From assembly GCA_030616085.1 (NCBI GenBank), contig JAUWYA010000001.1, positions 8,692 through 72,691 on the forward strand: DNA of 64,000 nucleotides, given 5' to 3'. The notes under the pieces are model-generated. The model had not been told where the DNA came from, ran no database searches, and saw only the letters and a program-made list of their open reading frames with translations. Below are positions 6,990 to 54,510 of this stretch, one piece after another; the stretch's first letter is position 1, and each line of letters begins with the position of its first letter. Made by a program: the position numbers and the translations under genes. This stretch comes from Candidatus Nealsonbacteria bacterium (GTDB lineage: Bacteria; Patescibacteriota; Minisyncoccia; Minisyncoccales; GWA2-38-27).

Positions 6990-7065
6990 CCCTGTAGAAG
7001 AAATTTGACTGCCTTTGAGATTTAGGTTTTCTTTCAGAAAATCTTGTCAAATTTTCTCTACGGGG
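6990..7065. mobile_element. Family A element (CCCCGTAG subtype), 76 bp
   Basis: Near-copy of 1311-1386; TAAA on both flanks. Confidence 0.85.
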
Positions 7066-7105: not shown

Positions 7106-7173
7106 CCCCGTTAGAAATCTTTGTTAATTAGAATTTCTATCGGGGTAAAAATCTATGGAAATTTCTAACGGGG
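7106..7173. mobile_element. Family A element, 68 bp, inserted in an ATGAG start codon
   Basis: Near-copy of 1422-1489; TGAG on both flanks; internal in-frame ATG at 7155. Confidence 0.9.
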
Positions 7174-9604: not shown

Positions 9605-10684
9605 ATGAAACAAAAAGGGTTTACCCCGTTAGAGATCAACGAGGCAAAAAATAAATATAAGGCAAGACAATCTCTAACGGGGTTTATTTCCATAAAGCTT
9701 CAGTTAATAATATTGGCTGTGATTTTACTTATAATGTCATTAGAAATAACCGGGCTTGTTTTAGACAGCAAAGGAAAATTATTTCCTTTATTTCGTAAAA
9801 TTTCTTTAGTATTCGCAGGATATAAAGATGCGGGAGGAATTTCAGATGAAGAAGGAAACGGCTTAACTTTCAAACAGGGGCCTGAATACTCAGATGAAGA
9901 AATGGAGAAGAGAATTAAAGAATTAGAGAAAAAAATCAAGGATCTTGAAGAAAATCAGCAGGTTCCCTTTCCTCCTGAAGAATATTTTCTTCCCCCTTTA
10001 ACTCAAGAGCAGATTAGCGCTGTAGTTGAACTTTGGTGTCCTGATGACGATTATAATTACACAGGATATATTAGCATTGGGTCAGGCAGCATTGTCAGTC
10101 CAGAAGGAATTATCATTACTAATAGGCACGTTATTTCAAATGAAGACTGGAGCGTTATTAAATCTACGCCAACTTGTTATGTTGCTGTTACAGATGATAT
10201 CGCCTGGCCGCCCACAGTGAAATATGCGGCTAATTTAATTGCTTACGCGCCTGTAACAGATGATTATTTTGATTTTGATATCGCTATTTTATATATCAAT
10301 GACGTTTGCCGCGAATGTGAGGATGCGCCAAGTTCTCTTCCTTCAAGTTTTTCTTATTTAGATCTTGGTTATTCTGATATTCTTGCGCCTGGAGATTATG
10401 TGGCAATTGCTGGTTATCCTGAAATAGGGGCAGGGACTTTTAATTTTACTGATGGAATAATAAGCGGAAGAGTAGGAGAGTTTGTTTTGAAAACAGATGC
10501 TAAGATTGATTCTGGGAATTCTGGAGGTTCTGCTTTGAATAGCAAGAATCAACTTATCGGAGCTCCTACCTGGACAATTTCAGGCCGGGCAGAAAGCATG
10601 GGCTATGTTATTGGTATTGACCAGGTTGTAGAATGGTATGAAACAAAAGTAGTGCCTTCTGATTCAGTAATAGTGCCTTACTAA
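9605..10684 (+). CDS. Membrane-anchored trypsin-like (S1C) serine protease
   Basis: GSGSIV, TNRHV (His), DIAIL (Asp), IDSGNSGG (Ser). Confidence 0.85.
   Translation: MKQKGFTPLEINEAKNKYKARQSLTGFISIKLQLIILAVILLIMSLEITGLVLDSKGKLFPLFRKISLVFAGYKDAGGISDEEGNGLTFKQGPEYSDEEMEKRIKELEKKIKDLEENQQVPFPPEEYFLPPLTQEQISAVVELWCPDDDYNYTGYISIGSGSIVSPEGIIITNRHVISNEDWSVIKSTPTCYVAVTDDIAWPPTVKYAANLIAYAPVTDDYFDFDIAILYINDVCRECEDAPSSLPSSFSYLDLGYSDILAPGDYVAIAGYPEIGAGTFNFTDGIISGRVGEFVLKTDAKIDSGNSGGSALNSKNQLIGAPTWTISGRAESMGYVIGIDQVVEWYETKVVPSDSVIVPY
9624..9682. mobile_element. Family A element, 59 bp, in frame in the protease gene
   Basis: CCCCGTTAGAGAT/ATCTCTAACGGGG; TTTA on both flanks; 59+4=63 bp. Confidence 0.9.
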
Positions 10685-24140: not shown

Positions 24141-24198
24141 CCCCGTTAGAGATAGGTTGCTATTGGCAATCGTCAGACGTCTTATCTCTAAACGGGGG
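24141..24198. mobile_element. Family A element, 58 bp, inserted in a TTGA(CT) -35-like box
   Basis: CCCCGTTAGAGATA/TATCTCTAAACGGGGG; TTGA on both flanks. Confidence 0.85.
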
Positions 24199-28195: not shown

Positions 28196-28289
28196 CCCCG
28201 TTAGAGATTATGGGGCAAGATAAGAAAATAATATTTATTATTAATTATGGTTCAAATAAAAAAACAAAGAGAAAGAATCTCTAACGGGG
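28196..28289. mobile_element. Family A element, 94 bp, inserted in an ATGA stop/start overlap
   Basis: CCCCGTTAGAGATT/AATCTCTAACGGGG; TGAA on both flanks; internal in-frame ATG at 28247. Confidence 0.9.
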
Positions 28290-31557: not shown

Positions 31558-31630
31558 CTTTATTTTAAAACTCTTGATATCCATAAATATTACAACTTTA
31601 TAGGTTTTTTCTATTTGACAAGCTTTATAA

Positions 31631-31683
31631 AGTTTTCCACAGGTTATGGTTTACAAAGACAGCCCTTTTCCTTTAAAATAAAA
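31631..31683 (+). repeat. ~50-bp promoter-containing direct repeat (copies at 31462, 31631, 32511)
   Basis: AGTTTTCCACAGGTTRTGGTTTACAAAGA...TTTTCCTTTAAAATAAA; TTTACA-18-TAAAAT. Confidence 0.75.
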
Positions 31684-31693
31684 GATGATAGTC

Positions 31694-31714
31694 TGGCGGT
31701 ATCGGATACCGCCA
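31694..31714. repeat. Family B palindrome, left flank of the RAYT gene
   Basis: TGGCGGTATCGGATACCGCCA. Confidence 0.9.
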
Positions 31715-31725
31715 ACTTCAATTTT

Positions 31726-32481
31726 ATGCGAAAACAACCATTTACAATAGATAGTTATGTTCATGTTTATAATAGAGGGAATCGAAAGACAGAGATAGTT
31801 CGAGCTGTCGCAGATAATTGGCGATTTTTACAAAGCCTTCGATTTTTTAATGATTCTCATTCTTCCACTCATATTTTACGTCAATTGGAGCTAGCTGGTC
31901 TGGCGGTATCCGATACCGCCAAGCCTACTATATCAAGAGAGTTTGAGTCTGTGTTTGAGATGGGATGGCCTCCGAATTGGCCAGAAAAAGATCCTCTAGT
32001 AAAAATTTTATCTTATTGTTTAATGCCAAACCATTTTCACCTGCTATTAAAAGAAATTAGAAAAGGTGGGATTAGTAAATTTATGCAAAAACTCGGCATA
32101 GGTTACACAAATTATTTCAATCTCAAATATCAAGAAGTAGGTAAAGTTTTTCAGGGAGGTTATAAAGCAAAATTAGTAAACGAAGAAATGTATTTGAAAT
32201 ACTTGTGTATTTATATTCAAGTAATAAATGTTTTAGAATTATTTCCGGGCGGTCTTAAAACGGCTCTTAAAAGCCCTAAAGATGCGATGAAATTTGTAGA
32301 CGATTATCCTTTTTCAAGTCATCTAGATTATGCTGGATTGCGAAAGTCTTTAATTATTGATAAAGACGTATTGGGTGAGTTTCTTCCCACATCAGAAGAT
32401 TACAGAAAATTTGCTCATGATTCAGTGATAGCAAAAGACTTTTATCAGATATTAGAAAAAGAAGACTTAAGGCTCGAATAA
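31726..32481 (+). CDS. REP-associated tyrosine transposase (RAYT; Y1 HUH family)
   Basis: HVYNRG, YCLMPNHFHLL (HUH), FQGGYK, YI..N, YPFSS; ATG 31726 preferred over TTG 31615. Confidence 0.88.
   Translation: MRKQPFTIDSYVHVYNRGNRKTEIVRAVADNWRFLQSLRFFNDSHSSTHILRQLELAGLAVSDTAKPTISREFESVFEMGWPPNWPEKDPLVKILSYCLMPNHFHLLLKEIRKGGISKFMQKLGIGYTNYFNLKYQEVGKVFQGGYKAKLVNEEMYLKYLCIYIQVINVLELFPGGLKTALKSPKDAMKFVDDYPFSSHLDYAGLRKSLIIDKDVLGEFLPTSEDYRKFAHDSVIAKDFYQILEKEDLRLE
31901..31921. repeat. Family B palindrome in frame inside the RAYT gene
   Basis: TGGCGGTATCCGATACCGCCA, read as LAVSDTA. Confidence 0.9.
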
Positions 32482-33233: not shown

Positions 33234-37193
<3,960 letters not shown>

Positions 37194-37221: not shown

Positions 37222-37289
37222 CCCCGTTAGAAGCCGCCCTGCCGAAGGCACGGCTACGGCCGCCTCGGGGCGATCTGCTTCTAACGGGG
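37222..37289. mobile_element. Family A element, 68 bp, GC-rich interior, inserted in a TTGACA box
   Basis: CCCCGTTAGAAGC/GCTTCTAACGGGG; TTGA on both flanks; TTGACA-18-TAAAAT regenerated on the right. Confidence 0.9.
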
Positions 37290-37435: not shown

Positions 37436-37496
37436 CCCCGTAGAGAAAATTTGACTTGCTTCGCAAATGAATATTTGTCAAATTTCTTCTACGGGG
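37436..37496. mobile_element. Family A element (CCCCGTAG subtype), 61 bp
   Basis: CCCCGTAGAGAAAATTTGAC/GTCAAATTTCTTCTACGGGG; flanks TTGA and TTTGA. Confidence 0.8.
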
Positions 37497-38065: not shown

Positions 38066-38671
38066 ATGCCCCGTAGAGAAATTTCGAAAAACCCCTACAG
38101 GGTAATAATAAGAATTTCGGAGAAATTCTTAATTCGAAATTCTTCTACGGGGATGGATAAAAATAACCTTGTTGAACTTACAAATAAAGTTTATAAACTG
38201 ACTTTGCTTTTTCCTAAAAAAGAACCTTTGAGGTATAAAATAAGGGAAGTTGCTGATGATATTTTAGCTTGTAATTCAAGTTCAAAGAAATTGCAGGAGA
38301 ATTTAGGCGTTCTTAAAAAGTACTTTGAAGTAGCTAAATGGCAGAATTGGGTAAGTTATTTTGATATTTTGGAGATTGAAAAGAAATATGATAAAATTGA
38401 GAAAGGTTTATTAAAACATGCAGAACTTCAGAAAGGTCCGACCTTTGCCAAGATTGACGGGAGTCAGACCTTAGTTAAAACTTTAGATAATAGAAAAGAA
38501 AGGATTTTAGAGATTTTGAAAGAAAAAGAAAGAATTCAGGTTTGGGAGGTTAATGAGATTTTATCTGATGTATCTAAAAGAACCTTGCGAAGGGATTTTG
38601 AGCAATTATTAAAGCAGGGCTTGGTTGAAAGAATAGGAGAGAGAAACAATACTTTTTACCAATTAAAGTGA
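38066..38671 (+). CDS. Four-helix-bundle-like domain plus DeoR-type HTH protein
   Basis: LFPKKEPLRYKIRE; VSKRTLRRDF..L...GLVERIG; original start probably 38153. Confidence 0.7.
   Translation: MPRREISKNPYRVIIRISEKFLIRNSSTGMDKNNLVELTNKVYKLTLLFPKKEPLRYKIREVADDILACNSSSKKLQENLGVLKKYFEVAKWQNWVSYFDILEIEKKYDKIEKGLLKHAELQKGPTFAKIDGSQTLVKTLDNRKERILEILKEKERIQVWEVNEILSDVSKRTLRRDFEQLLKQGLVERIGERNNTFYQLK
38069..38152. mobile_element. Family A element (CCCCGTAG subtype), 84 bp, duplicating an ATG
   Basis: ATG-CCCCGTAGAG...TCTACGGGG-ATG; 84+3=87 bp in frame and stop-free. Confidence 0.8.
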
Positions 38672-46294: not shown

Positions 46295-49036
46295 CTAAGG
46301 AAGAGATTCTAAGAATTCATCTATTTTTTCTCGCCCATGTGTTTTTGGTATTGAATATTGCCAAGCAATGAGGGCTTTTTGTTTTGCTTGGTCATATTCT
46401 TTTATTTCGTAATGAAGATGCGCTAAATTAAAATATAAAGTTCTTAAAAAATTATTTGCTTTTTCTCGAGATTTGGTGTCCGGTGTTGAATATTGCCAAG
46501 CAATTAGACCTTGTTGTTCTGCTTGTTTGAAGTTTTGTGTTATATTATAAGCTTGAGCCAAATAAAAATGATATTGGAAATGGTCATTGTCTAAATCTAA
46601 TATTGATTTAAAGAACTCTTCCGCATCTCCTAATAAGTCCGGAAACAATCTTACTATGTTTAAGGCTCGGTCTCTAGCTTTATCATATTCTCCTATTTCT
46701 TTATAAATGTATGATAAAGAAGCATGATATTGGAAACTTTCTGGGTCTGCCCACGCTATTAATCTGTCATAAACATCAGCTAATCTTTTGTAGATTTCTA
46801 TAAAAAGTTCTTCGTTTTTATCTTCATTTTCAATTGATTCAAATAATTTCATATAAGCTCTTTGTAATTTAAAAAGATTTTTGTCTGAGTTAATATTGTG
46901 CCCCATTTTAATTGATATAGCCATATTTTCATCAGCTTGTTCAAGTTCATTCAAATAAATATGAGCCAGAGCTTTTTTCCACCAGCAGTGTGCTAATTTC
47001 GGATTTAAATTAATGCATTGTTCTGCTTTTTCTTTTGCTGTTTGGTATTTTCCAGAAATAAAGTCACTTTCTATCCAACCAAGAAAGACTTCTTCACGTT
47101 TAGGGCTTAATTCGTGAGCTCTTTGATAGCAAGCATCAGCTTCTTTTTCTAATTCTTCAACACTCTCTATTTTAAGGATGTCTTTGTTTCCAATCAAAAT
47201 ATTTAAATAGCTTCCAAGAGAAATCCATGTTCTGGTATAATTAGGCCTTAGGTCTTTTAATTCTCTTAAGATTTCAACTGCTTTTGGGGCTAAGACGTAT
47301 TTTCTTTCCATATTTTGTTCTAGGCAATCTTTAATAATATCAAGATATTGAAGCCGGACATAAGTGTCTACAATGCTATGCGAAGAAAGAATACTGTCTA
47401 TTTTTTCTACTGCTTTTTCACACTGTTTTCTTTCTGAATAATAAATAGCCCAATTTAATTCTTTATTAATCTCCAAGGGTTTTAAAGCTCCAAGCCAAAT
47501 AAACAAAACTAATACACAAAATAGTCCAAATATTAATCCAGATTTCCACAGAGGACTATCAGAGACTGGGTCTCTGTTGATTAACAGAGACCGGGTCTCT
47601 GTAAGCTCATTATTTTTTTGAATAAGAAATAAAGAATAGCCAACTAAAAGAAAGAAAATTAGATAAGTAGAAAAACTATCAAAACTGAAAAAATTAGCTG
47701 TTAAATAACCAATAAAAACAGCTTGAATTCCATGGCAGATTAAAGCATCATTAGGATTTTTTGTTTTTAGTTTTTGTAATTGCCAGAATAATGCGGCAAA
47801 AAGAGAAAGATAGATTATTAAAGCGGGAATGCCTGCTTCAATTGCAATATCAAGTATAAAATTATGGGCTCTATCCCACCAAATGCGGGATAATCCTGGA
47901 AGACGAGGGTCATAATGTTTATCAAAAGCTACTGAAAAATTTTCTGGACCCCAACCAAGAATAGGTCTTTCTTTTATTGCCTCAATACTAACTTTCCAGG
48001 CAGAGAAACGCGCTTCTTCAAAGATTAATTCAAACGAAAGCCGAGGGGCAATTGTTTTTAATGTTCTGTTATTTTCAACAAATTCAGGAAGCTGGTCTTG
48101 TGTATTCACAAAGTAAATACTGCCAACAATTAAAAATAAGGCAATGACAGTTATAATTTTTAGTAAAAGTATTTTTTTTGAGCGGTTTTTTACCCCGTTA
48201 GAGATTTGTTTATTTTGTGGTTCTTCTTTTTTTTGGTAACCTCTAACGGGGTACAAGAGAAAGAAATAAAGAAAACCAATTATTAAGCCGAGATAAACAG
48301 CTCTGGCTTTTATGATTAGAATAACAAAAATAAACAATGCGATTACTGAAAAATAAAAGAATTTTTTTAGATATTTTTTTTCTTTTACCCCGTTAGAGAT
48401 TTGTTTATCTTGTGCTTTCTCTTTATTCTCAGAATCTCTAACGGGGTTTAAACCAAAAGATAAAGCTAAAAATACTAAGAACAAAAGATACATAGCTAAG
48501 AATATTGAATTTCCAAAACTTGCTGCAGGTCTTCCTGTAGAGGAGATAAGATATTCTTTGAAAACCTCAAAATATTGAAAGATGGCCATAATTGAGGCTA
48601 AAGCACCGATAACTAAAGTAAAGCCCCAGATTTTTTGCCAATCTTTTTTTCTGATAATCAAAAAAGCCAAAATAGCAAAAATTATATAAAGAGAAAAGTT
48701 TAAAAACCCGCCTGCTCTATATGGAGATTCCCAAAAACTGTAATAAGGGTCTTTAGAAAAAATAGTTGCTAAGAGGAAAATTCCCCAGAGGGTTATCAAT
48801 AACCAGAAAGGCCAGAAAACCTTATTTTTTCTATCTAATAAATCCTTAAAATTTATCTTGATTTTTTTAGAAATAATCTTCCAAATAAGAAAGAAAAGCA
48901 AACTAGAAACTATAATTCTAAAAACAAGAGCTTTTCCCCAGGCAGCTGGATGAAACATAGGAGGAACAGCAAGCAAGGGCAAAGCTAAAATCACAAAAAA
49001 AGCAATTAGATAGATTTTATAGGACTTGTTATCCAT
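46295..49036 (-). CDS. O-antigen ligase family protein with TPRs (tandem paralogue)
   Basis: Highly similar to 43923-46274, with two ...ISNGV insertions and extra TPRs. Confidence 0.85.
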   Translation of the reverse strand: MDNKSYKIYLIAFFVILALPLLAVPPMFHPAAWGKALVFRIIVSSLLFFLIWKIISKKIKINFKDLLDRKNKVFWPFWLLITLWGIFLLATIFSKDPYYSFWESPYRAGGFLNFSLYIIFAILAFLIIRKKDWQKIWGFTLVIGALASIMAIFQYFEVFKEYLISSTGRPAASFGNSIFLAMYLLFLVFLALSFGLNPVRDSENKEKAQDKQISNGVKEKKYLKKFFYFSVIALFIFVILIIKARAVYLGLIIGFLYFFLLYPVRGYQKKEEPQNKQISNGVKNRSKKILLLKIITVIALFLIVGSIYFVNTQDQLPEFVENNRTLKTIAPRLSFELIFEEARFSAWKVSIEAIKERPILGWGPENFSVAFDKHYDPRLPGLSRIWWDRAHNFILDIAIEAGIPALIIYLSLFAALFWQLQKLKTKNPNDALICHGIQAVFIGYLTANFFSFDSFSTYLIFFLLVGYSLFLIQKNNELTETRSLLINRDPVSDSPLWKSGLIFGLFCVLVLFIWLGALKPLEINKELNWAIYYSERKQCEKAVEKIDSILSSHSIVDTYVRLQYLDIIKDCLEQNMERKYVLAPKAVEILRELKDLRPNYTRTWISLGSYLNILIGNKDILKIESVEELEKEADACYQRAHELSPKREEVFLGWIESDFISGKYQTAKEKAEQCINLNPKLAHCWWKKALAHIYLNELEQADENMAISIKMGHNINSDKNLFKLQRAYMKLFESIENEDKNEELFIEIYKRLADVYDRLIAWADPESFQYHASLSYIYKEIGEYDKARDRALNIVRLFPDLLGDAEEFFKSILDLDNDHFQYHFYLAQAYNITQNFKQAEQQGLIAWQYSTPDTKSREKANNFLRTLYFNLAHLHYEIKEYDQAKQKALIAWQYSIPKTHGREKIDEFLESLP
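47560..47602. repeat. Family C palindrome pair in frame in the CDS
   Basis: CAGAGACTGGGTCTCTG and ACAGAGACCGGGTCTCTGT. Confidence 0.7.
48193..48251. mobile_element. Family A element, 59 bp, in frame
   Basis: CCCCGTTAGAG/CTCTAACGGGG; flanks TTTA and TACA (imperfect). Confidence 0.85.
48388..48446. mobile_element. Family A element, 59 bp, in frame
   Basis: CCCCGTTAGAGATT/AATCTCTAACGGGG; TTTA on both flanks; absent from the paralogue. Confidence 0.92.
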
Positions 49037-49850: not shown

Positions 49851-49870
49851 ATATTAAAGCATTTTAAAAA

Positions 49871-49935
49871 TGGATGGGAAAGTTCGGTGAAAATCCGAGA
49901 CTGTGCCGCAACTGTTAAAGTCAGAATACCATCCG
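49871..49935 (+). ncRNA. Compact cobalamin riboswitch
   Basis: GGGAA-GTTCGGTGAAAATCCGA-CTGTGCCGCAACTGT-AAGTCAGA core, closed by GGATGG/CCATCC; DUF4430-like genes downstream. Confidence 0.85.
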
Positions 49936-50034
49936 CACAATATTAACTTCTTTTCTTCGAGCTAAAGAGAAAGATTAACCCGCCAAAATTTAGGCGGGAT
50001 AATCTCTTTCACTCGAAAAGAGATTTTTTAATTC

Positions 50035-51858
50035 ATGAAAATAAAAAAGAAAATTTTAATTGTTTATTTAGCCATACTTTTAGCTGTCTTAATTGGATTG
50101 GGTAATTTTTTTGAAGTTTGGTCAGAAAGCCAATCAGAAATTGATAAAGCTATAAACTATCTTAAAGCTCAGCCTCAAACCGCCTGGGCCACTATGGCTT
50201 TGGCCGGAGCTGGAGAAACCGAGATTGATTTAAATCATCTAAAATCTGTTCCTTCTGGCCAAGAGTCAGCTACTACCTATGCAAAGTATATTTTAGCTTT
50301 AGTAGCAGTTGGCAAGAATCCCTCTAATTTTGGAGATGAAAATTATGTAGAGAAACTAAAAAGTTTTTATCAAGATGGGCAATTCGGTGAGAAAAATTTT
50401 ATTAATGATGATATTTGGGCAATTTTAGCCTTGGCTTCAATTGGTCAGAAAAATTTAGCAATAGTTCAGGATGCCAAAGATTATATTTTGAGCTATCAAA
50501 ATTCAGACGGAGGATGGAGTTATGATATTTCTTTTTCCTCTTCTGATACCAATGATACTGCTGCTGCCATTATGGCCCTGCTTGAAGCAGGAGTTTCTTC
50601 TTCTTCATCAGCTATCCAGAATTCTATTAGTTTTTTGAAATCTCAACAAAATGATGATGGTGGATTTTCTTATCTTGCAGATTCGCTTTCCGATTCTTGC
50701 TCTGATGCCTGGGTAATTTCAGCTATTTATAAATTGGGACAGGATCCTTTCAGCTCAAATTGGACAAAAAATGGGAAAAACGCTTTAGACCATCTCAAAT
50801 CTTTACAAGATGAAGATGGCGGTTTCTGGTGGCAATCTGAAGGGGATAACAAATTTTGCAGTTCTTATGCTTTGGTTTCCTTATTAATGAAGTATTATCC
50901 GATTGAAACAATTTATAATAAGCATCACTTAAGAATTGAAGATCAGGATAGCACTATTTGTGATACTGAGATTAATGGCGGCACTGCTATGGATTTGATA
51001 ATTAGAGGTTCGGAGATATGTAATTACGATTACTTAATTAGTGAGTATCCTGGAATAGGTCTTTATTTGGCAGAAATAAATGGTCAGGCCAACTGGATGT
51101 ATATGGTAAACAATATTTCTCCTATGATAGGAGCAGATAGCTATTACTTAGAAACTGGAGATGAGGTTTTATGGTTTTCTGGAGCATGGTTAGAGAAAGG
51201 TTGGTTTCCAACTAAGCTTGAATTATTTAAAACCGAAAATTTAGCCACTTTTCAAGTAAAATATTACGATTCCGCAGCTAATAATTGGCAAAATTTAGAA
51301 ATACAAGGAATAAAAGTAAAGATTGGCGAGTCAGAATTTATTACTAATGATACAGGACAAATTGAAGTTTCTTTAACAGGTTTAGAAGCTGGTTTTTATC
51401 AGGTATTTGTTGAAACCCAGATTATTGATGAAAAAGGTTATATTAGAAGTGAAAAAGTAAATTTAACAACTGGAGAAGTTCCTAAAGAACATGGAGTGGG
51501 ATTAAAAGTAGAGATTGAAAAAATAGAAGTTCCTCCTGGAGGAGAACAAGAAGCAATTAGTTTTTCAGTAAGTTCAGATAGTTTGGATTTCGGAAAATTA
51601 AAACCAGGAGAAAGCTCTACTCAAAATTTGACCATTGACAATGGAGAGAGTAGAATTTATTTAGAAGCGGAAGTAAATGGAGCTAGTGTTTTTCAAGACA
51701 ATTTAGAAATAGATGAAAAATTTTGGCAATTTTTCTCAACTGAAATTGAGAAAAACCAAGAGAAGTCTTTCCCAGTCAAATTAACTATCCCATTTAATTA
51801 TGATGGAGATTTTGGCCAACAAGAGGGGGAATTAACTTTTTGGGCAATTAAAAAATGA
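50035..51858 (+). CDS. Surface protein with prenyltransferase/squalene-oxidase-like repeats plus DUF4430-like domain (putative B12-binding)
   Basis: YQNSDGGW, QQNDDGGF, LQDEDGGF repeats; WMYMVNN.SP.IGADSY.L..GDEVLW. Confidence 0.75.
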   Translation: MKIKKKILIVYLAILLAVLIGLGNFFEVWSESQSEIDKAINYLKAQPQTAWATMALAGAGETEIDLNHLKSVPSGQESATTYAKYILALVAVGKNPSNFGDENYVEKLKSFYQDGQFGEKNFINDDIWAILALASIGQKNLAIVQDAKDYILSYQNSDGGWSYDISFSSSDTNDTAAAIMALLEAGVSSSSSAIQNSISFLKSQQNDDGGFSYLADSLSDSCSDAWVISAIYKLGQDPFSSNWTKNGKNALDHLKSLQDEDGGFWWQSEGDNKFCSSYALVSLLMKYYPIETIYNKHHLRIEDQDSTICDTEINGGTAMDLIIRGSEICNYDYLISEYPGIGLYLAEINGQANWMYMVNNISPMIGADSYYLETGDEVLWFSGAWLEKGWFPTKLELFKTENLATFQVKYYDSAANNWQNLEIQGIKVKIGESEFITNDTGQIEVSLTGLEAGFYQVFVETQIIDEKGYIRSEKVNLTTGEVPKEHGVGLKVEIEKIEVPPGGEQEAISFSVSSDSLDFGKLKPGESSTQNLTIDNGESRIYLEAEVNGASVFQDNLEIDEKFWQFFSTEIEKNQEKSFPVKLTIPFNYDGDFGQQEGELTFWAIKK

Positions 51859-51859
51859 G

Positions 51860-51940
51860 CCCCGTTAGAAATCCAAAAAAGATTCTAAAGGGGAAATATT
51901 ATGCTTCAAAAACTCAGAAATTCTAAAATTTCTAACGGGG
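51860..51940. mobile_element. Family A element, 81 bp, in an ATGA stop/start overlap
   Basis: CCCCGTTAGAAAT/ATTTCTAACGGGG; TGAG on both flanks; internal GGGG plus in-frame ATG at 51901. Confidence 0.9.
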
Positions 51941-52485
51941 TGAGAAAAATTCTATTAATCTTAATAATAATTTCTTTTTTAGCTGCTAATTCTGTTCAAG
52001 CGGTGGCAGTTAAAGTTAAGCCATCTGAAATAAAAATTGAAGCCAATGCAGGAGTTTTGATTGAACATGAAATAATAATAGAAAATCCGGGTGAAAACGT
52101 AGCTTTGTTTGAAGTTTATTTAGACAATTTTTCTGATTGGATCAAAGCAAAACCAGAAAGTTTTGTTTTAGAAAGTGGAGAAATGCAAAAAGTAATTTTA
52201 GAAATTAAAAATGAAGAGATAGGGGTCTTTTCTACTATGATTTCAGTAGTAGCTAAATCTTTATCTGAAAGGAAGTTTAAAGCCAATTCCGGAGTGAAAA
52301 TCCCCTTGGAAATTAGAGTTATTCAAAGAGAGGAATCAAATTTTTTAGCTGCTGTTTCCCAAAACATTAAAAGATTTTTGGATTCAAGGAGCTTAATTTT
52401 TGTTTTTAGCATAATTTTAGTTTTGGTTTTAGCCATAATTTGCATAAAGAGGCGTAAGAGCATATTAAAAGATGAACCCCGTTAG
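51901..52485 (+). CDS. Secreted Ig-like protein with C-terminal TM
   Basis: Signal peptide, V.P..I...IENPG pattern, C-terminal anchor; start and stop are both supplied by family A elements. Confidence 0.65.
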   Translation: MLQKLRNSKISNGVRKILLILIIISFLAANSVQAVAVKVKPSEIKIEANAGVLIEHEIIIENPGENVALFEVYLDNFSDWIKAKPESFVLESGEMQKVILEIKNEEIGVFSTMISVVAKSLSERKFKANSGVKIPLEIRVIQREESNFLAAVSQNIKRFLDSRSLIFVFSIILVLVLAIICIKRRKSILKDEPR

Positions 52486-52754
52486 AGATTAGCGATATGT
52501 TTTATACTTACGTAATACAAAGCAAAAAAGACAGAAAATGGTACACTGGCTATACTGAAGATTTACGGAAACGCTTTAATCAACATAACTCTAATGAGGT
52601 TTATTCAACAAAAAATAGAGGACCGTTTGAGCTAATTTATTATGAAGTATGTTTAAATTCACAAGATGCAAGGTCAAGAGAAAAATATTTAAAAACTGGG
52701 ATGGGAAAGCGCTATCTTAAAAATAGATTAAAGCGTTTCCTATCTCTAACGGGG
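52477..52754 (+). mobile_element. Family A element, 278 bp, carrying only a GIY-YIG nuclease gene
   Basis: 13-bp perfect TIR CCCCGTTAGAGAT/ATCTCTAACGGGG; TGAA on both flanks (52473-76, 52755-58). Confidence 0.9.
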
Positions 52755-52757
52755 TGA
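52497..52757 (+). CDS. Stand-alone GIY-YIG nuclease, 86 aa
   Basis: FYTYVI...WYTGYT.DL.KR..QHN...TK.RGPFELIYYE...A..RE.YLK. Confidence 0.92.
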   Translation: MFYTYVIQSKKDRKWYTGYTEDLRKRFNQHNSNEVYSTKNRGPFELIYYEVCLNSQDARSREKYLKTGMGKRYLKNRLKRFLSLTG

Positions 52758-53248
52758 AAAAAAATATTAAAATAATTATATGGATTGGAATATTTCTAAT
52801 TTTAGTTGCTGGAATAATTTTTACCCCGTTTAGAGATTATATGACAGGGCTAAAAAACAGAGCAGACAAATCTCTAACGGGGTTTATCTTTCAAGACAAA
52901 GTTGATCTTGAAGAGGAATCTAATAATCAAGTATTAGAAGAAAGCACAATAAGCGTAATTTTAATTATTGATTATGGCGATGGAATCTCTCAAGACTTTG
53001 ATATTGAGTTTGTTGAAGGAATGACCGCCTTTGATTTGTTAAATGATAGGGCAGAGGAATTAAGCTTGGAAACAAAAGCATATGACATTGGAATTCTTAT
53101 AGAGGCAGTTGGGGATAAAAAGAATGGACAAGATGGAAAATATTGGCTATATTATATAAATGGAGAGATGCCTATGGTTTCAGTTGATAATCTGAAAATT
53201 AACCCTGACGATAAAGTAGAATTTAAATTTGAGAAATCACCATTTTAA
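52754..53248 (+). CDS. DUF4430-domain membrane-anchored protein
   Basis: TAFDLL, GILIEAVG...NGQDGKYWLYYING, DKVEFKF; GTG start created by element end plus TSD. Confidence 0.8.
   Translation: MKKNIKIIIWIGIFLILVAGIIFTPFRDYMTGLKNRADKSLTGFIFQDKVDLEEESNNQVLEESTISVILIIDYGDGISQDFDIEFVEGMTAFDLLNDRAEELSLETKAYDIGILIEAVGDKKNGQDGKYWLYYINGEMPMVSVDNLKINPDDKVEFKFEKSPF
52824..52882. mobile_element. Family A element, 59 bp, in frame
   Basis: CCCCGTTTAGAGATT/AATCTCTAACGGGG; TTTA on both flanks. Confidence 0.9.
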
Positions 53249-54481: not shown

Positions 54482-54510
54482 CCCCGTTTAGAGATAAATC
54501 TCTAACGGGG
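54482..54510. mobile_element. Minimal family A element, 29 bp, in a TTGACA box
   Basis: CCCCGTTTAGAGATAAATCTCTAACGGGG; TTGA on both flanks; TTGACA-17-TAATAT regenerated on the right. Confidence 0.9.

Follow-up and report, generated by a model that had tools for sequence, protein, structure and literature searches.

A 278-bp unit with a GIY-YIG nuclease as its only gene is a candidate for a new class of insertion sequence

Introduction

Can a DNA unit of 278 bp whose only gene encodes a single-domain GIY-YIG nuclease insert itself at new sites, and is the nuclease the enzyme that moves it? The question is raised by a locus of Candidatus Nealsonbacteria bacterium within a stretch of 64,000 nucleotides (assembly GCA_030616085.1, contig JAUWYA010000001.1, positions 8,692 to 72,691), here called the window. 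Prokaryotic insertion sequences are classed by their chemistry as DDE, HUH, serine, tyrosine or DEDD. To our knowledge none uses a lone GIY-YIG domain, and our literature search found none. The window lies on contig C1 of the source genome (G000), a 740-kb draft of 35 contigs that is 98% complete; its small size, along with the number of Patescibacteria among the top protein matches, suggests an ultra-small bacterium. An earlier note on this DNA had proposed that the unit is the autonomous member that mobilizes a family of shorter, gene-less repeats with the same termini.

Anatomy of the element

The element, which we assign to family 1, occupies positions 52477-52754 on the forward strand, the strand of all features of this locus. 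Its inverted ends are perfect over 13 bp, with the left arm CCCCGTTAGAGAT at 52477-52489 and the complementary right arm ATCTCTAACGGGG at 52742-52754. TGAA is repeated directly on both flanks (52473-52476 and 52755-52758). The sole gene (52497-52757) encodes an 86-aa single-domain GIY-YIG nuclease; the right arm provides its last codons, so that the protein ends in SLTG, and the TGA of the right duplication serves as its stop codon. The insertion altered the C-terminus of the upstream host gene (51901-52485; 194 aa, no Pfam match), whose new stop lies in the left arm. The left TGAA, together with the preceding A, was formerly the ATG start of the downstream DUF4430 gene (52754-53248). This gene, which contains an in-frame gene-less copy, now starts with a GTG formed by the last G of the right arm and the TG of the duplication. 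After in silico removal of the element and one TGAA, the upstream gene ends in KDEKKY and the DUF4430 gene starts with MKKNIK. The coordinates thus bear out the earlier description of a 278-bp unit with perfect 13-bp inverted repeats between TGAA flanks, filled by an 86-aa GIY-YIG reading frame that borrows its stop codon from the duplicated target, and of a normal junction restored by its deletion.

No Rfam family was matched on the 278-bp element. An AdoCbl-II cobalamin riboswitch (Rfam RF01689) is found at 49861-49941, at the head of the operon that contains the element, with genes for a prenyltransferase-like/DUF4430 protein, an unknown protein, a DUF4430 protein and a DUF6580 protein behind it. 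Because it sits in this operon, the nuclease gene may be read on a B12-controlled transcript.

The Pfam GIY-YIG domain (PF01541) covers residues 1-68 (E 2.7e-16) and is the only domain of the protein. The predicted fold (pLDDT 93) is nearest to those of UPF0213, HIGLE and Slx1, and the top Protein Data Bank match is BH0048, both by sequence (E 7.6e-8) and by fold. HIGLE and Slx1 cut branched DNA, which titles of Slx1 entries echo. Residues Y3, Y5, Y16, G18, R26, H30 and E62 are invariant across 40 sequences, and we take them to be catalytic.

Nuclease-bearing copies and sites that lack them

At least four nuclease-bearing copies are present at different loci of the source genome, each on a start codon. 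The copy on contig C26 shares 88% protein identity with the window copy, with 25 synonymous and 10 non-synonymous codon differences between the two genes. A third copy is split across the ends of contigs C3 and C29 (45 of 45 overlapping bases identical) and is placed between a DHH gene and rnhA. The fourth, of which contig C30 holds the right half only, stands ahead of an ftsZ-like gene. The C29 and C30 copies differ at 2 of 160 bases, yet the genes downstream of them are different. Near-identical copies break short-read assemblies, and two of the four copies stand at contig ends.

As the earlier note had proposed, we searched relatives for sites without the element, and these were found for nuclease-bearing as well as gene-less copies. 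In G037, the only one of eight DUF4430 loci (60 relatives) that also has the upstream gene, the same gene pair as in the window overlaps at ATGA, with one TGAA and without the element. The C26 site is represented in G001 by a single TGAA without the element, and G002 has the filled site. The copies at the rnhA and ftsZ-like loci are each absent in five of five relatives. In contigs from other studies' sequencing runs, no junction skipping the 278-bp unit was seen among the 15 of 82 joints listed, and no listed contig of runs X2-X4 spans the unit. Target duplications and empty orthologous sites support the reading that the nuclease-bearing unit is mobile.

Two further observations concern these sites. 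The empty C26 site of G001 (L244; contig C2, near 33750-33830) lies inside a 40-bp unit repeated three times, which is either an excision footprint or an assembly artefact. In the gap between the DHH gene and rnhA, where the source genome has the nuclease element, G001 and G002 have other small hairpins of unrelated sequence (L395, L396).

Gene-less copies with the same ends

With up to two mismatches allowed, the arm motif is found 24 times in the window, compared with 0.65 expected, and exact 9-mer arms occur 173 times in the source genome compared with 0-5 times in 10 shuffles. A duplication flanks 69 of the 85 adjacent arm pairs in this genome (63 of 4 bp and six of 5 bp), against a mean of 8.3 (sd 2.7, maximum 20) in 10,000 flank permutations. 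The shuffles and permutations rule out a chance origin of the arms and duplications. The four-base duplications read TNNA in 60 of 63 cases. We also ruled out a 2-bp duplication within longer arms, because the non-TNNA sequences CAAG, CCCG, TGAG, TACG and CTGG are duplicated over all four bases.

The window contains 11 gene-less family-1 pairs and two orphan arms. Four pairs stand on start codons: an 81-bp copy with a TGAG duplication (51860-51940), two 68-bp copies (1422-1489 and 7106-7173) and a 94-bp copy (28196-28289), all on the forward strand. Four 59-bp copies are found inside genes. One is in frame in the DUF4430 gene with a TTTA duplication (52824-52882, forward strand), one is in frame near the 5' end of a gene (9624-9682, forward strand), and two lie in the O-antigen ligase-like gene, at 48388-48446 in frame and at 48193-48251 with a decayed duplication. 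The remaining copies are associated with promoter hexamers: a 29-bp copy on a TTGAC(A) -35-like hexamer with a TTGA duplication (54482-54510), a 68-bp copy on TTGACA (37222-37289) and, at TTGAC, a copy whose right arm is a variant (24141-24197). The earlier count of about 17 empty copies with the same termini needs correction, as it mixes two families: four gene-less copies have other ends and belong to the second family described below.

Three of these copies have exact empty sites, with a four-base ambiguity, in contigs from other studies' runs, which aligned at 85% likeness and therefore come from related organisms. The skipped segments are 63 bases at 48383 (X2 and X3), 85 bases at 51855 (X2 and X4) and 63 bases at 52819 (X2 and X4), corresponding to the copies at 48388-48446, 51860-51940 and 52824-52882.

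We did not accept that the gene-less copies are plain deletions of the nuclease gene, since in the source genome they have weak local matches to it at best; a few gene-less copies from metagenomes end in the 3' sequence of the nuclease gene. The value of 14 of 40 obtained in one arm-gap search is a lower bound, as the gap range excluded the common 59-bp class. The interiors of the 59-bp copies of the source genome are far diverged (nearest-neighbor median 67%), and 23 of 26 have a perfect duplication and paired arms.

Insertion sites and effects on host genes

We analyzed the insertion sites of 78 elements flanked by duplications, after dropping three composite or nested ones from 81, using genes from a simple ORF caller. 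Inside genes we found 25 elements, all 25 in frame, which is attributable to selection for harmless sites. The other 53 are enriched on expression signals: 24 on ATG (background 8.7%), nine on TTGAC (background 2.8%) and eight on -10-like hexamers (background 7.1%). The surviving copies would be those that spared the host, being either in frame within genes or at start codons and promoter hexamers restored by the duplication.

Gene-less copies of the source genome with similar interiors share the class of target (nearest-neighbor agreement 46 of 71, compared with 17.3 when shuffled). The groups comprise TTGAC -35-like hexamers, TATAAT/TAAAAT, and start codons with an internal in-frame ATG. This sorting could reflect either selection or flank-guided targeting.

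A second nuclease with its own ends

A second GIY-YIG gene of the source genome (G000:C33:19739-20055) lies in a 317-bp unit and encodes 87 aa with 57% identity to the first; its ends are different, longer and imperfect. These family-2 ends bound 18 gene-less copies. A 4-bp duplication flanks 15 of the family's 19 pairs; most of the duplications read CATA/TATG, where a start codon was hit, or TATA. Four of the gene-less copies are in the window, at 1311-1386, 6990-7065, 37436-37496 and 38069-38152, with the nuclease gene on contig C33. Similar proteins with similar ends are found in G013 and G010, and these family-2 proteins do not form one branch in the tree.

The two arms covary

At the variable arm positions 1, 11, 12 and 13, the left and right arms of a copy agree in 66, 67, 68 and 68 of 68 cases, against 57, 34, 48 and 60 of 68 when shuffled; positions 2-9 were fixed by the search, which in itself makes them look constant to some extent, and kinship among the copies raises the counts. 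Agreement ends at position 14, and the same pattern is seen in 72 nuclease-bearing loci. Several different paired arm variants exist. The two arms thus likely pair, and their covariation fits a 13-bp stem that is recognized in part by its sequence and in part by its shape, or arms that are copied from each other. The earlier note had suggested that the nuclease may act by cruciform cleavage: covariation over exactly 13 bp backs the pairing of the ends as a cruciform or hairpin, and the cleavage itself we infer.

Distribution in genomes and metagenomes

The 86-aa protein has at least 436 relatives in genome contigs. The best 80 of these share 69-90% identity with it and are from Patescibacteria, Omnitrophota, Planctomycetota, Nitrospirota, Thermodesulfobacteriota and others. 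The earlier note had proposed examining whether homologues carry these ends, and both arms are present at 75 of the 80 best-matching loci, 274-287 bp apart in all but one; ranking by similarity favors the right arm, which is coding, without favoring the left. An intact duplication is kept at 25 of the 75 loci, against 7.1 (maximum 16) when permuted, and the right flank starts with a stop codon at 55. The flanks of most of the 75 are unrelated to one another, with partial dependence among loci: L002 and L003 are identical, L004/L006 and L047/L067 are orthologous, and five have a common left flank. Since only 25 of 75 loci keep the duplication and G002 also has the C26 copy, many of the copies must be old and inherited.

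At 12 of the 75 loci (L007, L008, L019, L034, L036, L040, L046, L048, L054, L055, L061 and L075) the flanks are TTTA..TGAA, or the reverse complement TTCA..TAAA, instead of a duplication. Rearrangement between copies may have produced such flanks.

We also sampled metagenomes by arm rather than by gene. Under a strict arm list, the sample comprises 123 loci with 128 arms, 78 of them paired and 50 unpaired; for 26 of the 50 unpaired arms, the downstream sequence was read by eye. Of the 78 paired arms, 65 enclose <150 bp, 10 are 150-400 bp apart and three are farther apart and without a duplication. Five of the 10 intermediate pairs encode the family-1 nuclease and the rest have no clear gene. 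Of the short pairs, 40 of 75 are flanked by a duplication.

Carriage by phages was considered and rejected, as no relative was found in viral_contigs, and the plasmid search returned one distant YazA match. Distant small GIY-YIG genes of related genomes (L094-L119; 33-58%) are in many cases found immediately after tRNA-like ends or other palindromes.

Other candidate enzymes and co-occurrence

We searched the 35-contig draft for seven transposase families that might supply the mobility. No PF01609, PF13358, PF12762, PF00872 or PF02371 gene was detected. The genome encodes three rve-type (PF00665) and three Y1 (HUH) transposases, none of which bears family-1 ends. The rve genes, presumably IS481-like (one has TGT-type ends of its own) or IS30-like, are separated from the closest arm of the same contig by 6-21 kb, and the Y1 genes are flanked by other palindromes. 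No duplication-flanked arm pair up to 6 kb apart in this genome encloses another gene. Among the seven families searched in this draft, there was no DDE or Y1 partner sharing the ends. The earlier statement that no DDE transposase is present applies to the window for these families, but other contigs encode the three rve-type genes and the window has a Y1 gene. The note had named a DDE transposase with the same ends elsewhere in the genome as evidence against its reading; there is none among the transposases found in the source genome.

The Y1 (HUH) transposase-like gene of the window (31614-32481) is followed immediately by a palindrome specific to it, and what look like copies of this palindrome occur inside the reading frame of the gene. 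The single reverse transcriptase of the source genome (G000:C5:11593-13663) adjoins what we take to be an Avd-like gene and its likely target gene, with no arm nearby, and is probably part of a diversity-generating retroelement.

We compared the occurrence of nucleases and gene-less copies (exact-arm, 44-74 bp) across 200 genomes of the class. Gene-less copies are present in 10 of 21 genomes with a close nuclease compared with 31 of 179 without (odds ratio 4.3, Fisher p 0.003, a statistic that ignores kinship). The genome-level association that the earlier note had proposed to look for is therefore real but loose. No nuclease at E 1e-33 was detected in 31 of the 41 genomes with gene-less copies, and 11 of the 21 nuclease genomes have no gene-less copy of 44-74 bp. 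G008, G017, G020 and G004 contain 18-39 arms and no nuclease with >60% identity. Loss of the nuclease after expansion, or assembly collapse, might explain copies without it.

Proposed mechanism and alternatives

The family-1 unit inserts at T-N-N-A and duplicates four, sometimes five, bases at many unrelated loci. We consider it likely that the 86-aa GIY-YIG nuclease moves both the 278-bp element and its gene-less derivatives. In the route that we propose, the two arms would form a 13-bp stem when the DNA is single-stranded or extruded, and the nuclease would read the conserved core of the stem and nick at its base. The target would be cut with a 4-nt stagger, and joining would be left to host repair or to a strand-transfer step new for the GIY-YIG fold. 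GIY-YIG enzymes are hydrolases, and we know of no joining step among them. Of the claim that the unit is an autonomous member mobilizing its family, the mobility is upheld by duplications and empty sites; that the nuclease is the mover we infer, and the co-occurrence is loose.

Duplications of a constant 4 bp are characteristic of DDE enzymes, and one could suppose that another enzyme (a host DDE or HUH transposase or repair) moves the ends, with the nuclease as a passenger that aids its own persistence or, by cutting gene-less copies, turns them into complete ones. The three rve-type and three Y1 transposases of the source genome and the many genomes that have gene-less copies and no close nuclease are in keeping with this. 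Yet the rve genes are IS481-like or IS30-like in character and have no arm within 6 kb, the Y1 genes go with other palindromes, and no long, duplication-flanked arm pair encloses another gene in the source genome or the arm-first sample. Moreover, both nuclease subfamilies come with ends and gene-less copies of their own, and we regard a passenger role as unlikely. An RNA route like that of Penelope-like elements, with target nicking by the nuclease and copying of a transcript by a reverse transcriptase provided in trans, would draw on the one reverse transcriptase of the source genome, and error-prone copying could yield the diverged interiors of 59-bp copies that retain perfect duplications. 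Both ends are base-exact, however, without 5' truncation or tails, and the reverse transcriptase sits in its diversity-generating-retroelement-like setting away from any arm, so that we give this route very little credence.

The protein could also be a site-specific single-stranded DNase that cuts beside a hairpin, like the Ssn nucleases, with spread as a by-product of repair or template switching and the gene possibly kept for a host role. The same size and fold class, the repeat-enclosed gene and the pairing arms are what this would predict, and the strong enrichment on expression signals (24, nine and eight of 53 on ATG, TTGAC and -10-like sequences) is compatible with it. It is at odds with the clean 4-bp duplications and exact empty sites, which indicate a defined insertion reaction, and with a gene that is multicopy at unrelated loci and not a fixed single-copy host gene; the family also lacks the SRM motif and forms a separate branch. 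We consider this quite improbable.

Returning to the nuclease as the mover, the broader proposal is that the stand-alone 86-aa GIY-YIG protein is the transposase of a new class of insertion sequence. It would read the 13-bp end stem, excise or copy the loop and insert it with a 4-nt stagger. Several nuclease-end pairs per genome, in units of 275-320 bp, would be among the smallest self-mobile DNA units and would remodel the start codons, promoters and proteins of their ultra-small hosts. We hold this proposal with slightly better than even confidence. In Patescibacteria-type genomes, the element family accounts for a pervasive input of peptides inserted in frame, of new N-termini and of altered promoters, and it offers many small enzyme-end pairs of differing specificity.

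Comparison with known systems

A literature search, with most subscription journals outside its scope, found no publication on this element. We compared family 1 with several described systems. DDE insertion sequences with MITEs (Correia-type) share the inverted repeats, the 4-5 bp duplication and the many short gene-less derivatives, and they too rebuild or donate start codons and promoter hexamers. Family 1 differs in that there is no DDE gene between its ends, the whole unit is 278 bp, and the arms covary per copy as a stem. The REP/REPIN-RAYT systems resemble family 1 in their short paired arms, variable spacers, small cognate enzyme gene and several enzyme-repeat pairs per genome. Unlike in those systems, the family-1 enzyme is a GIY-YIG protein, is multicopy and is itself mobile, and its copies enter genes; none of the three Y1 genes of the source genome is flanked by family-1 arms.

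The nearest matches to the family-1 protein by sequence and fold are UPF0213 (YhbQ/YazA, BH0048), HIGLE and Slx1, and we found no description of them as repeat-bounded or mobile in the literature searched. GIY-YIG domains are used for selfish spread by I-TevI homing endonucleases and by the endonucleases of Penelope-like elements. In contrast to these, family 1 has no intron, added DNA-binding domain or reverse transcriptase and occupies many unrelated sites; the protein is 86 aa alone, at four different sites in the source genome.

We also compared family 1 with the Ssn nucleases (cd10448), which cleave single-stranded DNA next to NTS/SRM hairpins (Chenal et al. 2025, PMC11893778). Their NTS-ssnA-NTS layout has been called IS-like, a domesticated mobile element being the authors' hypothesis (PMC11893778), so that, for this sister family, the Discussion of that article had anticipated the general notion of a GIY-YIG cassette resembling an IS; the word "duplication" is absent from its main text. 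Both families have a single-domain GIY-YIG protein of about 90 aa and a gene enclosed by a genome-scattered repeat (PMC11893778). Family 1 has another C-terminus, each of its ends is one arm and not a whole hairpin, and its target duplications and empty sites demonstrate insertion. Five NTS-flanked GIY-YIG proteins are 26-32% identical to family 1 and form their own branch (100/99, length 2.07), and family 1 is a separate group (95/86), in a tree of 46 rows and 86 columns that serves as a proxy for the CDD classification and whose bootstrap is not fully settled. The published degenerate SRM pattern had no match in the source genome or at any of the 75 loci, with five of five in the control. 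We therefore rejected the assignment of family 1 to Ssn. What is known already is a small GIY-YIG gene with cognate repeats and IS-like anatomy; what is new here is insertion, as shown by comparison of occupied and empty sites. Mobility has been only hypothesized for the sister family (PMC11893778), and the duplications and exact empty sites demonstrate insertion of a nuclease-only unit, which makes the hypothesis of IS-like mobility directly testable with the 86-aa protein and the 13-bp stem.
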